In this document: positions 34,126 to 62,928 of the stretch, in pieces | Layout: the number at the start of each line of letters is the position of its first letter | Position numbering within the stretch: the stretch's first letter is position 1 | Notes under the pieces: model-generated | What the model was told of the DNA's origin: nothing | Databases searched by the model: none | Seen by the model: the letters and a program-made list of their open reading frames with translations, nothing else | Made by a program: the position numbers and the translations under genes | Assembly: GCA_964016885.1 (NCBI GenBank) | Contig: OZ024740.1 | Coordinates: forward strand, 79,670,001 to 79,734,000 | Source of the DNA: Eledone cirrhosa | Taxonomy: Eukaryota | Length of the DNA: 64,000 bases | Direction of reading: 5' to 3'

Positions 34126-34250
34126 TTATCACACACCTGTGACATCATCAGTGGTACTATTATATTTCCTCCCGTTGTATTGCAAATAGACATTGCAATA
34201 CAATGGGAGGAAACATAATAGTACCACTGAAGATATCACAGGTGTGATAA
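34126..34250. repeat. About 125-bp foldback hairpin; each arm carries a partial hammerhead core
   Basis: Near-perfect inverted arms; CTGAAGA-TATCAC-AGGT-GTGATA on plus and CTGATGA-TGTCAC..GTGATA on minus. Confidence 0.85.
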
Positions 34251-34378
34251 ACTATATATATATATATATATATATATATAAATATTTCGTATCTCCAAAG
34301 AAATACAGTTTTAGGAAGCCGTAGCTATGCAAACACCGGGGGGCTAACGCCATCTGGTGATATCCAGCAGAAGCAAGG

Positions 34379-34431
34379 GGGACAACCGTCTATGCATTTC
34401 AGGCTTAACTGGCCTTCGTCAGGATGGTCCC
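34379..34431 (-). ncRNA. Type I hammerhead ribozyme (inverted copy)
   Basis: ACCATC-CTGACGA-AGGC-CAGTTAA-GCCT-GAAA-TGCATA-GACGGT; one stem I mismatch. Confidence 0.8.
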
Positions 34432-34640
34432 TCCCACTGCTTGCGACTGCTGGACTAGAAGACAGGCGAGAATATATACTTTTCTCGTCTGTGTAAATGA
34501 GGTGATTAATCTCATTTGCATATGAAGCTGCATAATTTGGCTCAACTTGTAATAAAAAAGAAATAGGATTTCGCTTCAAGCATAGCTTTATACAATATGT
34601 ATACATATGTCTTCTAGTCCAGCAGTCGCAAGCGGTGGGA

Positions 34641-34693
34641 GGGACCGTCCTGACGAAGGCCATTTAAGCCTGAAATGCATAGACGGTTGTCCC
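34641..34693 (+). ncRNA. Minimal type I hammerhead ribozyme
   Basis: Stem I ACCGTC/GACGGT, core CTGACGA, stem II AGGC/GCCT, GAAA, palindromic stem III ATGCAT, predicted cleavage after AUA. Confidence 0.88.
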
Positions 34694-34957
34694 TCTTGCT
34701 TCTGCTGGACATCACCAGAAGGCGTTAGCCCCCCCCCCCCCCCCCGTGTTTGCATAGCTACGGCTTCCTAAAACTGTATTTCTTTGGAGATACGAAATAT
34801 TTATACATATTGTATAAAGCTATGCTTGAAGCGAAATCCTATTTCTTTTATATATATATATATATATATATAATGAAAAATTGAACAGGGACAGAACAGA
34901 GAGGCAGTACGATAAATGTTTATTAAATTCACGCTCAGGAGAGTGGGGGGTGGTGGG

Positions 34958-34996
34958 GGACGACGTTTCGGGCATAAGCCCTTCTTCAGGTGAGAA
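34958..34996 (-). ncRNA. Penelope-type minimal hammerhead motif
   Basis: Minus strand CTGAAGA-AGGGC-TTAT-GCCC-GAAACGTC; AATAAA downstream on minus (about 34919-34924). Confidence 0.72.
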
Positions 34997-35664
34997 GTGT
35001 GTGGGAACAGAGTTCAAAAGGTGTGTAGGGGAGTGGTGGAGAGACATATAGCGAAAGGAAACGGTGCGAATGAAAAATTAACAAATAGAGACAAAAAATA
35101 TAATAAATAATAAATAAAAATAAAAATAAAGCATGATCAAAATACAAGGAATATATATATGAGAGACGTAAAATAAGAAAATTATAAAATTAACTTACTT
35201 ACTAAAAAATCACTTCCAACTAATTAGTTTCTGGAATGGAGTAAATATACCCCATGCATTGAACCACATTGTTAATAAGACAAAACCTATATATTTGCTA
35301 GCATTGATATGCATATGTGTGTATATAAATGTTACTAGATATAAATTCCTTATATATATATATATATATATATATATATATATATATATATATATATAAC
35401 CGTTTGTCAATCAATGATAAACATTGATTGTCAGCTAAATTAACTACAGGAATATAAAATATACAAAAGCGAAAACCATTTGCAACCAAACAGTTAGTTT
35501 GTTTTATTATTATTTCTGGCAATATTATAACAATATGACCCTCCCCAAATATAACAATATATATATATATATATATAGTTATAAGCAAAGAGTTATTTAA
35601 TTTGTTGGTAATTCAACAAATTTATTTATAACACTACAGTTTTCTTCTGGAGTATAATATCGAT

Positions 35665-59105: not shown

Positions 59106-60674
59106 ATCAATATGATAGGCAATGGGTTGTTCTTTCGTTTCATCGATCAGTTTTCCAATTCTTCGATCAACGAATGTAATCATTTATTGAATTATAATGT
59201 ATGTGGCAGACGTATGTCCTCTTAACGAAACCCCGAGACAGACTCAGCATGTGAGTGTATGTGTATGTGTATGTCTGTATGCGTGCGTGTGTGTGCGTGT
59301 GTATGTGTGTGTGCATGTGTGTGTGTAACGAGAGCTGTCAACTCTCCCTGTCCAACGAGATTTGCAATAGCCTTTGAGGTGGGTGAGAGATGTCTTTTGT
59401 GAAAATGGGTATAGCTTTCATTATGTAAATCTCCCCATTTTGCCTCAATTCTCCCCGTTTTGGGGGCACTTTTTTTCATTGTACTCACGATTTGGGTTTT
59501 TAGAAGTTGGCAGGTCTGCTGTAACCCAAGGTGGACGCTATATTGTTACATGTATGTAATGTACTGTGTGAAATAAAGTAGACGGAAACTGTTTGGAAGC
59601 CCGTCGGATGAGCTATATCTGTAATTTCAAAGGTTCAGTCTGACCTGACACTATGTCACGCTGAATCTCCCTGAGAATTACGCTAAGAATACACGTGTCT
59701 GTGGAATACTTAGTCACTTATACGTGATTTAATCCTTTCATCAGCATATTTCTAATAAATGATACTGCGTATGATTTTTATATCATTTTGAAAATAATCA
59801 ATAATAATAGAGGAATTTGGTACGATAACTTTCTCTGTCGACCGGGATCAACGAGGCGGACTGACCCTTGGATTTCATTTATGGTGGTAACCTATGGATT
59901 TGATTTACTTCCATAAGCATATATCCACACGTACATACATGTATAAAAATCATTGAGACGATTTTGTCTTAATCCGTCTTCGTTGTTGCGTATGAAATAA
60001 TTTTGATGTTTACTTTCTTATTTATCTGGTGTTTGAAACATAACATTACAAAGGTCTTACATGAAATTAACAAAGAAGGGTTTTTAAAAGAGATAAATAT
60101 GAATACACTAGAATAAACAGTTTTGTATAATAAAAAAAACAGGGAGGGTGTCAAAACGGTTAACAAGTGAGCCGTTCCGTTGACTGAACAACTATTAAAA
60201 TCATCTTTGAAATCGATGAAGGTTCATTCATATTTTATGATCTTTTATCTTTGATGTGAGATATTATCTTTTATGCGAGATATTAGATCGATATCACATT
60301 GATACACATGCTCATTGATGTTAAAGTGGTTCCACCTGTACATGTGTGTAAAATGATATTGTATGCTCTGTTATCCGTGTAGTTGTTATTTTGTTATTAA
60401 TATTAGAGTAATTCTACATGCTGTGCGTAAAACGATATTGTATGCTTTGTTATCTGCACTAGTATTTCTCATATATACAAAGACATTACATCGTATCACA
60501 TGTTCTGTTATTCCTGTTATCGACAACTTATTGTTTTACAGACGTGTTTTTTTTACCAAACTTTAACAATGCCACTGTTTGTTTATATATATATATATAT
60601 ATATATATATGTCTCTCTCTCTCTCTCTATATATATATATATATATATATATATATATATATATATATATATAA

Positions 60675-61101
60675 TGTAGGAGGTGAGTTTTATTGTAGCA
60701 CAATAAAGCAATGCAAATATCCGATAAGTAGCACTCCACAAGTCTCTGTGAGACAATGTTTTTTCTCTGTTTTAAAGGCTATTTCTCTCTCTCTATCACT
60801 CATTTCTCCTCCTCTCTCACCCTTCCTTCTTATACTCCTCCCCCGTCATCCTTTTCTTTCTTCCTCTTCCTTACCTTTTCCTACACCCTCCCCCTTTTTT
60901 TTCCCCAATCTCATATATCCATCTTACTTTATTTTTCATATGTTGATTTAACACTTCACTGCTCGCAAGTGATTTTTAAGCTTCATATCATGTCTCCCTA
61001 TTTTATCTGATGAAAACGCAAATATCATCCCATGATGATATTTGTTTTTGAAATGCGCATAATAAAATACTTGGAACTCTTTTAACCATCTTTTGATCTT
61101 A
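60675..61101. mobile_element. Head-to-head hammerhead cassette in (TA)n; hammerhead on plus at 60999-61069
   Basis: 60675-60740 matches 41625-41690 and 63350-63415; the remainder is the reverse complement of 63445-63800. Confidence 0.85.
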
Positions 61102-61260
61102 TATATATATATATATATATATATATATAGTTGTAATAAAATGAAAACGAAATTTCATTTCTCACTCTTAGCACGGCACTTACTTAAATGTAAGTATGTA
61201 TGTATACGTACATACATATATGTATACAGACGTACAGTAGCATGCATATATATATATATA

Positions 61261-61862
61261 TGGTGGCTGCCAACTCGTTTTCGAGTACGGCCACTACTTT
61301 ATATCCATGTAGGAGAACCCCTACCGATGCGCTGAACGAGTGCGACTTTTTAGTCCAGCCAGCGACTTGAAAACTTTGGTACAAACACTACACTTGTGAC
61401 AATTATTGACACATAGTGCTGGGCCCATGGTACCATGTGACGACAAGTGCAGAGAGATCTCCAGATACAAAGCAATGCCTGTGCCGTGAAGCTTTTATAG
61501 TGAGCAAAGGCACTGCACAAAGCCAGTCCCACTCTCTTAACCAAGATGATATTTACCAAAAAGAACAAGTCAACATCATTAGATACCATCAGGGTTGCAG
61601 GTGTTATATCAGAGTTTTCCTTCTCCTAGAATTCTGCCTTGACAAAGGCTAAGGGGTCATCTCTCCCGGTGATTTTGGATGGCCATTGACTCTTAAGAGC
61701 TCCTTTGCCCTTTGACAGGTTTTGTTTTTAGTCCTGCAGGATGTCCAAAGTCACCCTACTCACCAAGAAACCTTGGTGGGGTTGCCAGTTTAGTCGCCAA
61801 CGACCCGACCATGGGACAGGTTGTACTGGGATACATGTTACCAGTAGCACCAACTTGTGACC
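61261..61862 (-). mobile_element. Insertion into the internal (TA)n of the unit; resembles an RTE LINE 5' UTR
   Basis: Higher GC; minus-strand GGCGACTAAACTGGCAACCCC and TTAGCCTT...GGCA...CTAGGAGAAGGAAAACTCTG recall RTE 5' UTRs (recognised from memory). Confidence 0.5.
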
Positions 61863-62537
61863 TGATATACATATATATATATACATACAGGTACACATAC
61901 ATATATGTACGTATCAGTTTAGCGGACGCTTATTATAGCGCCCGCTTTGTTCGTTTGTAAACAAACTGAACAGCCTGAATTTATGCCGCATGGTGTTAAG
62001 GCAACCACGTCACCTTTTTGTTCAACACTGACACAGGAACGATGTACTAGTTTCAAGCTTGTTAGCTATCATCAGCACCGTATACCCATCTGCCAGATAG
62101 TTGAACGTTCGAAAGTATATACTTTCCCTATGAAAATTAACGGCTGAGCAGCCTAATTTGCATATCGAGTGAGTTAAATCGGTCAGGCGCACCGAAAACG
62201 ATGAGTTGTAATAAACTGATACGTACATATATGTATGTGTACCTGTATGTATATATATATATATATATATATATATATATATATATATATATATATGCAT
62301 GCTACTGTACGTCTGTATACATATATGTATGTACGTATACATACATACTTACATTTAAGTAAGTGCCGTACTAAGAGTGAGAAATGAAATTTCGTTTTCA
62401 TTTTATTACAACTCATCGTTTTCGGTGCGCCTGACTGATTTAACTCACTCGATATGCAAATTAGGCTGCTCAGCCGTTAATTTTCATAAGGAAAGTATAT
62501 ACTTTCGAACGTTCAACTATCTGGCAGATGGGTATAT

Positions 62538-62576
62538 GGTGCTGATGATAGCTAACAAGCTTGAAACTAGTACATC
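62538..62576 (+). ncRNA. Minimal type I hammerhead (inverted twin at 62041-62079)
   Basis: GGTG-CTGATGA-T-AGCT-AACA-AGCT-T-GAAAC-TA-GTA-CATC; palindromic stem III ACTAGT. Confidence 0.78.
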
Positions 62577-62928
62577 GTTCCTGTGTCAGTGTTGAACAAA
62601 AAGGTGACGTGGTTGCCTTAACACCGTGCGGCATAAATTCAGGCTGTTCAGTTTGTTTACAAACGAACAAAGCGGGCGCTATAATAAGCGTCTGCTAAAC
62701 TGATACGTACATATATGTATGTGTACCTGTATGTATATATATATATATATATATATATATATATATATATATATATATATATATATATATATATATATAT
62801 ATATATGCATGCTACTGTACGTCTGTATACATATATGTATGTACGTATACATACATACTTACATTTATATATATATATATATATATACGATATTAAACAA
62901 ATGGAAACTATATTTATAAAACCATATT

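Follow-up and report, generated by a model that had tools for sequence, protein, structure and literature searches.

Two-armed hammerhead insertions in (TA)n tracts of Eledone cirrhosa are predicted ends of Penelope-like elements and retrozyme-like monomers

The window analyzed here is a 64,000-nt stretch of Eledone cirrhosa DNA (contig OZ024740.1 of assembly GCA_964016885.1, positions 79,670,001-79,734,000 of the forward strand). It contains eight cassettes, numbered C1 through C8 and listed without strand, that represent seven families in total, given that C4 and C7 belong to the same one. A preliminary description had proposed that these cassettes share outward-pointing arms, a hammerhead core in one or both arms, and, in most cases, (TA)n boundaries. 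All eight indeed have arms that diverge from a central junction, and these form an inverted similar pair in all except C7, but the cores of C1 are decayed in both arms. Likewise, both outer ends are bounded by (TA)n in seven of the eight cassettes, but C5 has none on its left and (CA)n on its right. The centers of the eight cassettes lack (TA)n. In the four families tested (C2, C4, C6, and C8), copies stop at two fixed 3′ sites, called E1 and E2, with E2 located 41-100 nt beyond E1; the corresponding distance is ~200 nt in C1. Three cassettes had originally been drawn too short by omission of their one-sided tails, and their true spans are 33879-34252 (C1), 35578-35955 (C3), and 42651-43075 (C5).

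Five of the cassettes are two-armed ends of Penelope-like elements (PLEs). C1 is the 3′ end of a Neptune/Nematis-type PLE, with a long minus arm that includes a ~200-nt tail (33879-34190) and a short plus arm (34193-34252). Its CUGANGA motifs at 34151 (minus) and 34227 (plus) belong to cores decayed by a G12-to-A change, whereas the core is intact in 17 of 20 family loci. C3, C4 (41627-41987), and C6 (48730-49385) each represent the pLTR end of a Hydra-type PLE. The sole hammerhead of C3 belongs to the minus arm (35756-35712). The plus arm has an internal deletion, and the center is a 64-bp perfect palindrome (35839-35902). C4 carries cores at 41810-41756 (minus) and 41887-41941 (plus), with an 83-nt tail ending at E2 on the minus arm and a plus arm that stops at E1. 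The hammerheads of C6 are found at 49202-49287 (plus) and 48835-48750 (minus), and its 83-nt tail is on the plus arm. C7 (60675-61101) belongs to the C4 family. Its minus arm is the 66-nt tail alone, ending at E2, and its plus arm comprises ~360 nt of 3′ UTR plus pLTR, contains a hammerhead at 61007-61061, and stops at E1. The two arms share no sequence stretch.

The remaining three cassettes are of other types. C2 (34279-34849) is a two-armed insertion of a 333-nt, ORF-free, retrozyme-like hammerhead monomer, with cores at 34422-34391 (minus) and 34650-34681 (plus), a left arm that stops at E1, and a right arm that stops at E2, 41 nt further. C8 (61128-62866) likewise has two arms derived from an ORF-free hammerhead monomer, in this case ~440 nt long, not counting a TA tract within it. 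Its cores lie at 62075-62045 (minus) and 62542-62572 (plus), and its left and right arms stop at E2 and E1, respectively, which are 59 nt apart. The TA tract of the left arm has itself received an unrelated young repeat of 603 bp (61262-61864), with copies of 95-97% identity in loci L028, L115, and L175; those in L115 are in tandem with (TACA)n spacers and lack a hammerhead core. Finally, C5 is a two-armed insertion of an old hammerhead family (~80-90% identity) with a long stem II, an intact left core, and a decayed right core.

Hammerhead motifs were sought with two strict scanners covering 16.3-64 kb, which missed some arms that are readable by eye. The first scanner found seven type I cores, compared to zero or one in 15 shuffles, and the second found 10, compared to zero to two in 30 shuffles. 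When the scans are combined with direct reading, a type I core (CUGANGA...GAAA...UH) with stems I-III is intact in 11 of the 16 arms (both arms of C2, C4, C6, and C8, the left arms of C3 and C5, and the right arm of C7), decayed in three (both arms of C1 and the right arm of C5), and absent from two (the right arm of C3 and the left arm of C7). C6 has a U3-A8 variant core, UUGAGAA, which is present in 16 of 25 family loci, with UUUAGAA in another seven; given this core, a Naiad-like assignment of C6 as an element devoid of hammerheads was dropped. The C8 core is intact in 25 of 25 loci, and the predicted fold of the C2 monomer has a z-score of -4.3. An Rfam search of the whole window yielded no hammerhead at E<=1, with matches only to microRNA families on simple repeats, and the best hammerhead score, a weak HH9 match to C8 (16.7 bits, E 0.15), is under the gathering score of 52. 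Because these hammerheads fall below Rfam thresholds, the arm-level calls rest on the motif-plus-stem scans.

Minimal PLE hammerheads, as described in PMC4209133, are type I motifs that form opposite-strand pairs 100-700 bp apart, mostly within truncated PLEs, and have a short palindromic stem III and a U3-A8 core variant, as do the cassettes. Unlike in those hammerheads, stem III of C6 is 6 bp long and is predicted to permit folding as a monomer, and stem II in the cassettes reaches ~80 nt.

A larger element of related type occupies 50930-55020 on the plus strand. It is a 5′-truncated, frameshifted Hydra-type PLE with DKT, YRDD, CxCX5C, and GIY-YIG motifs (GIY-YIG E 0.0016, under the Pfam cut-off), its own 3′ hammerhead-like motif with a CCGAAGA core (~54936-54985), and further family copies. 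The suggestion that this element mobilizes the cassettes in trans is not borne out: it is frameshifted, its 3′ end has no similarity to any of the cassette units, of which it is not the source, and its sole tie to them is membership in the same class of elements that insert in (TA)n. We also observe that nested insertions gather in the TA tracts of the window, where C1 lies beside C2, C7 beside C8, and a tail-to-tail pair of zinc-finger LINEs is located at 49632-50112.

In each genome search, the best 40 candidates were scored and at most 30 loci were read. The cassettes themselves are ORF-free, as originally described, but the families of C1, C3, C4, C6, and C7 encode ORFs. Elsewhere in the genome, the units of these four families adjoin RT/GIY-YIG ORFs of three Hydra-type families and one Neptune/Nematis-type family. 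For C1, loci L201, L206, L207, and L208 carry, on one strand, an RT, a CX4CxxC linker, a GIY-YIG-like EN, and then the unit. For C3, the tail in L165 continues into the start of a broken RT ORF with DKT, of which only the N-terminal part of the RT was seen. For C4/C7, the unit is followed by a 5′ UTR and an RT-EN ORF in L107 and L108, an EN is upstream of the unit in L110-L114, and the ORF start in L006 is 82 nt past the tail anchor. For C6, the strand of the unit carries an EN ~1.2 kb upstream of it in L092, L097, and L103, and the tail enters an ORF start in L099. Thus, the earlier proposal of extremely truncated PLE insertions holds for C1, C3, C4, C6, and C7, which represent the 5′-truncated ends of autonomous PLEs.

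A partial pLTR tandem, with the unit on both sides of the ORF in one locus, was observed only for C4/C7 and not for C1 or C3; in the locus concerned (L107), the second pLTR ends at E1. The C6 unit is found downstream of an EN and upstream of an ORF start in separate loci. The RT identity of the local ORFs derives from motifs and homologues: Pfam searches with the local PLE ORFs gave no RVT_1 score and one GIY-YIG match under the cut-off, and, of 8000 candidates scored against the L107 ORF, 163 are homologues at E<=1e-20, some of which carry GIY-YIG or RVT_1.

The parents of C3, C4/C7, and C6 are classified as Hydra-type, a placement set by motifs rather than by a tree. As reported in PMC8557442, Hydra-clade PLEs insert at (TA)n, carry hammerheads in the pLTR, and leave an inverted 5′-truncated copy and a one-sided tail. 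These three parents and the 50930-55020 element resemble that clade in their RWK-like (RW-type) motif, DKT, CxCX5C linker, lack of CCHH, CxxC plus CxH in the EN, and (TA)n target, with the limits that only DKT and the RW motif are visible in C3 and that the C6 linker is cut by the locus edge. In contrast, the tail reported for the clade is 30-40 nt, compared to ~83-100 nt in the cassettes. Assignment of the PLE parents to Neptune was dropped against the same definition of the Hydra clade (PMC8557442). The C1 parent shares with Neptune/Nematis-type EN+ PLEs the CX4CxxC linker and a CCHH-like arrangement of two Cys residues within the GIY-YIG core and His residues downstream (PMC8557442). Its ~200-nt tail is a difference, and the assignment stays at Neptune/Nematis. 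These cassette families may already be among the PLE family and hammerhead lists in the supplements of PMC8557442.

C2 and C8 have a different organization. We read 25 loci for each, taken from 2409 (C2) and 1638 (C8) first-look candidates. Head-to-tail copies occur in four of 25 C2 loci, with a period of 323-333 nt, and in six of 20 non-overlapping C8 loci, with periods of 465-586 nt. As in retrozymes, the repeated unit is an ORF-free monomer of a few hundred nucleotides with one type I hammerhead, and neither family has a sequence link to any pLTR or to the 50930-55020 element. One alternative is that these units are remnants of pLTRs from autonomous PLEs for which no ORF-bearing copy was sampled, since only 25 loci of each large candidate pool were seen, three of 25 C2 loci and two of 25 C8 loci have PLE fragments no more than 1.5 kb away, and retrozymes have been proposed to come from pLTRs (10.64898/2026.07.22.740005). 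We regard this as unlikely. Every read-through past E2 that was seen (16 of 25 C2 loci, 19 of 20 C8 loci) leads back into the start of the monomer itself, whereas such read-through enters an ORF in C3, C4, and C6, and the nearby PLE fragments do not join the monomer directly. We classify C2 and C8 as closed, head-to-tail hammerhead monomers of the non-LTR retrozyme-like type. The notion of stand-alone retrozyme-like units thus survives for these two families, with the head-to-tail monomer, rather than the palindromic cassette, as the unit.

Like the metazoan non-LTR retrozymes described in PMC7229834 and 10.64898/2026.07.22.740005, C2 and C8 are abundant, dispersed tandem monomers, although the C8 monomer, at ~470-520 nt compared to 333 nt for C2, is slightly longer than the 150-450 bp range given in PMC7229834. 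They differ in being two-armed with PLE-type fixed ends (the word "inverted" is absent from the available text of PMC7229834), and C8 differs further in having its own TA tract. For the C5 family, a set of 40 loci, some of them overlapping, showed no PLE protein match, tail read-through, head-to-tail monomer, or ORF linkage, and the upstream sequence common to the loci is short.

The ends of the two-armed copies were then compared. Removal of 13 duplicated or overlapping loci from 105 left 92, in 52 of which the second end could not be assigned. Among the 40 with two assignable ends, 39 combine one E1 with one E2 (C2, 7/7; C8, 12/12; C4, 13/13; C6, 7/8), and the exception, C6 locus L086, has E2 on both arms. 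The C4 and C6 search queries included the tail, so their main arm is biased to E2, but the C2 and C8 queries lacked it, and thus their 19 of 19 complementary ends are free of query bias. Moreover, (TA)n lies directly against 116 of 129 ends, compared to 2109 of 18400 flank positions (11.5%).

These data bear on whether each cassette arose from two independent insertions, or from later DNA rearrangement, within one (TA)n tract. Although TA tracts in the window collect many insertions, we consider such an origin very improbable. The cassette centers are free of (TA)n, both arms always come from one family among at least seven present, and 19 of 19 unbiased complementary pairs would have a probability of ~2e-6 if ends were independent at one half. 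Fold-back artefacts of long-read assembly are, in our estimation, even less probable. Arm identities are 91% over 189 nt and 98% over 53 nt for C2, 100% over 64 nt and 98% over 49 nt for C3, 98% over 102 nt for C4, 98.5% over 194 nt for C6, 98% over 336 nt for C8, 92% over 53 nt for C1, and 83% over 146 nt for C5. The arms differ by 1.5-17% plus indels, nothing is mirrored in C7, the insert of C8 is confined to one of its arms, and a mirror artefact would not give each arm a different fixed end. No contig from four public runs bridges the C6 junction, a gap that proves nothing, and no contig or RAD read bridges that of C2, which is evidence neither way.

The central junctions are also variable. 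Of 47 scored, 22 have an overlap of at least 1 nt (at least 2 nt in 18), four are blunt, and 21 have extra bases. Because junctions vary between copies, the inversion would arise anew at each insertion. This disfavors a model in which the palindromic cassette is itself mobile as a stand-alone double-hammerhead hairpin that is copied whole. Some C4 data seem to favor this model: 20 of 30 copies share a single stop site, a CATATG palindrome, and form near-identical 430-bp cassettes, and L015 and L017 have an identical junction. However, this hotspot could be explained by the self-complementary stop site, and junctions otherwise differ among copies in all four families tested. In addition, arm lengths range from tens of bases to entire ORFs, and outward arms mean that a transcript would hold only one sense hammerhead. 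We therefore give the model little credence. Similarly, the cassettes were viewed as ready-made dsRNA hairpins, but C7, whose arms are not complementary, forms no hairpin. An A>G excess, the expected scar of an edited RNA intermediate, was not significant in any of the four families (C8, 8 vs 2, p 0.056; C4, 9 vs 10; C6, 1 vs 4; C2, 13 vs 18).

We conclude that the five truncated PLE ends and two monomer insertions likely arose by one route, in which a PLE RT/GIY-YIG enzyme would cut a (TA)n tract and start reverse transcription from both DNA ends, using E1 for one end and E2 for the second. The two cDNAs would usually terminate early and be joined end to end, yielding the head-to-head form, and some PLE would supply the enzyme for C2 and C8 in trans. 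Arm ends do not correspond to hammerhead cut sites, a possibility that was rejected because the predicted cut precedes E1 by ~8-130 nt or more. Given that E1 and E2 are downstream of this cut and that arms cross it, the template would be an uncleaved tandem RNA or a re-ligated circle, and not a cleaved linear monomer. The hammerhead appears to travel as a passenger of the pLTR or of the monomer, and the predicted ribozyme alone does not explain mobility.

Twin priming of LINE-1 uses two primers to generate head-to-head arms whose junction shows short overlaps. The non-overlapping form of C7 matches it exactly, although the cassettes differ from LINE-1 products in that the second site is fixed and the arms often overlap. 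A literature search for Penelope combined with twin priming returned nothing on topic. A biochemical parallel is provided by purified Poseidon PAc (PMC11167929), which is reported to cut and extend both strands at AT-rich DNA, with two internal RT start sites bounding the tail, an uncleaved RNA template, a predicted dimer, and no need for hammerhead cleavage. Its start site shows no strand preference in vitro, whereas arms here have different sites in 39 of 40 copies, a strictness of pairing that the in vitro behavior does not account for. We speculate, at slightly less than even odds, that the PLE enzyme acts as a dimer on a single uncleaved or circular RNA and gives each end of the (TA)n break one start site, and that the C2 and C8 monomers kept or evolved their own pair of sites to hijack it.

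These insertions are of a known kind and do not constitute one ribozyme-based non-autonomous mobility system, as the title of the preliminary description had it, or a new class of hairpin elements. The component observations are already published (PMC8557442, PMC4209133, and PMC11167929), and the annotation is corrected to PLE ends and retrozyme insertions. Nevertheless, finding the strict E1-E2 rule in both autonomous and non-coding families joins the start sites observed in vitro (PMC11167929) to the inverted-plus-tail form, and favors the PLE mobilization of retrozymes proposed in PMC7229834. If our speculation on the dimeric enzyme is true, this genome would hold a direct record of the PLE integration step and of a partnership between retrozymes and PLEs.

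The genome around the window spans 3.0 Gb, and the window itself is rich in microsatellites. One homologue named from Argonauta would fit a cephalopod source. In all eight two-armed hammerhead cassettes (C1–C8, numbered in window order), the arms run outward from a centre, just as the preliminary description had it. In seven of them the arms share inverted homology. The exception is C7, a member of the C4 family, whose arms share no sequence because the left is tail only and the right is body. The extents first drawn had left out the tails of C1 and C3; once these are counted, (TA)n flanks both sides of 7/8 cassettes, which bears out the view that most are so bounded.

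For each unit, the best 40 of 707–2650 candidates from a search of its own genome were scored and 20–30 loci per family were read, so that family and end counts describe the top matches of each search. At locus L107, a C4/C7 unit, a 5′ UTR, an ORF with reverse transcriptase (RT) and GIY-YIG endonuclease (EN), a 3′ UTR and a second unit follow in that order, and L108 is similar. EN also lies upstream of this unit in L110–L114, and the tail of the family is the start of the 5′ UTR, with the ORF of L006 starting 82 nt past the tail anchor. The C6 unit has EN upstream in L092, L097 and L103, and its tail continues into an ORF in L099. In L165 the C3 tail leads into an ORF start that is broken. The ORFs of these three families and of the frameshifted Penelope-like element (PLE) at 51–55 kb carry DKT, an RW motif, a CxCX5C linker and CxxC/CxH in EN, and lack CCHH, although the set is only partly visible in the C3 and C6 ORFs. 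Because these features define Hydra in PMC8557442, all four elements appear, at the level of sequence, to be of that type. The C1 unit has a GIY-YIG-like end upstream in L119 and L128, and RT, CX4CxxC, EN and the unit lie on one strand in L201, L206, L207 and L208, an arrangement that points to a Neptune/Nematis-type parent. Units therefore adjoin RT/GIY-YIG ORFs for C1, C3, C4, C6 and C7; for C2, C5 and C8 no such junction was seen in the loci read. Given this linkage, the first five are ends of autonomous PLEs, and the novelty proposed for them lapses.

Hammerhead cores far exceed shuffled controls in two comparisons (7 versus 0–1 in 15 shuffles; 10 versus 0–2 in 30 shuffles), and scanning the window and cassettes against Rfam gave no hammerhead match at threshold. 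A core had been noted in one or both arms; 11 of the 16 arms carry an intact one, and it is decayed in three and lacking in two. The predicted C6 ribozyme has a UUGAGAA...GAAA core, its stem III is 6 bp long, and its cut triplet is GUC. UUGAGAA occurs in 16/25 C6-family loci and UUUAGAA in 7 more (segmental duplicates). The former is a U3-A8 variant, a type described in PMC4209133. In the 51–55 kb family, CCGAAGA replaces CUGANGA in 12/12 copies (54936–54985, plus strand, and L212–L223), 11 of them with GAAA intact; among the copies read this is a fixed U4C core variant. A further PLE 3′ end lies at 47290–48330 (plus strand). It consists of the EN C-terminus (EN match 47132–47407), a long UTR rich in pyrimidines, and a hammerhead at 48221–48318 whose stem II measures 79 nt. 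Three hammerhead-bearing ends missing from the original list lie on the minus strand at 41120–41555, 62890–63000 and 63350–64000. The last is a further two-armed C4-family copy at the right edge, whose second arm falls just outside the window (L106 1480–1656).

Other repeats share the window. A 27-bp tandem array of ~603 copies with long open frames (1–16215) is a candidate coding repeat or satellite, and a GC-rich LINE-type RT fragment lies at 17700–19690 on the plus strand (RVT_1, E 2.9e-10). At 49632–50112, a single (TA)n is flanked, tail to tail, by two LINE-like 3′ ends with C2H2 zinc fingers that are 86% alike. This pair looks like two separate insertions and has no hammerhead. Hammerhead-free palindromes occur at 55109–55202 (perfect, 94 bp, with (TA)n at its centre) and 55756–55855 (100 bp). 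A SINE-like dispersed repeat present in many copies (20948–32731, 43229–43327, 57280–58462) may resemble octopus SINEs.

C2 and C8 fit the stand-alone, retrozyme-like option of the preliminary description. Sequence past the tail returns to the unit's own start in 16/25 C2 loci (period 323–333 nt) and 19/20 C8 loci (465–586 nt), and no contiguous ORF was seen beside either monomer in 25 loci each. PLE fragments lie within 1.5 kb in 3/25 C2 and 2/25 C8 loci, none joined to the monomer. Judged by sequence, both would be non-LTR retrozymes as defined in PMC7229834. Head-to-tail C2 read-through also appears on one contig from another organism (organism B; run X5 contig 17), which may make the family older than the species. 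The C8 monomer (L080 1035–1500) contains its own variable (TA)n tract, in which other insertions sit (the window, L066, L070). A young 603-bp repeat at 61262–61864, in which no hammerhead core was found, is arrayed in tandem in L115 (7750–9901), its copies spaced by (TACA)n. C5 is an old family, with neither ORF nor tandem in 40 fetched loci.

Each family has two fixed 3′ end sites, E1 and the more distal E2, which bounds the tail; the distance between them is 83 nt in both C4 and C6, ~100 in C3, 41 in C2, ~80 in C5 and 59 in C8. Pairing was scored for C2, C4, C6 and C8 at 92 non-duplicate loci, including the window's four copies, with 13/105 loci set aside as duplicates or overlaps. Both outer ends were assignable in 40 of the 92, and 39 of these 40 combine one E1 with one E2 (exception L086), a count biased for C4 and C6, whose queries contained the tail; the C2 and C8 queries, free of that bias, gave 19/19. 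At least four TA units abut 116/129 ends versus 2109/18400 flank positions. The 47 central junctions, scored approximately from BLAST ends, are nearly all different in sequence (overlap of at least 1 nt in 22, blunt in 4, extra bases in 21). A CATATG palindrome is the stop of 20/30 long C4-family arms, a sample whose query left out shorter copies. Public runs yielded no read spanning the C2 or C6 junctions, a gap that proves nothing, and no significant A>G editing scar was found in the C2, C4, C6 and C8 families.

Alongside the observed unit-ORF linkages, fixed ends, E1/E2 pairing and (TA)n target, we propose that the PLE enzyme would nick (TA)n on both strands, that the two 3′ DNA ends would prime at one site each, and that the cDNAs would stop early and then be joined to one another. 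Both sites lie downstream of the predicted hammerhead cut, arms cross the cut site intact, and some are longer than one unit, as in L107 and the C8 arrays. The RNA copied would therefore be a tandem precursor or a circle, either of which fits. According to PMC11167929, a Poseidon PLE cuts and extends both strands from two internal start sites bounding the tail, without strand preference in the start site and without requiring ribozyme cleavage.

Much of this has precedent in the literature: inverted 5′-truncated copies with an often one-sided tail and a (TA)n bias (PMC8557442), opposite-strand hammerhead pairs 100–700 bp apart, taken as truncated PLEs (PMC4209133), and an argued origin of retrozymes from PLEs (10.64898/2026.07.22.740005). 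In the portions of the main texts consulted, E1/E2 pairing was not found counted, nor shown for retrozymes. The two-armed cassettes are real, explained and known in kind.
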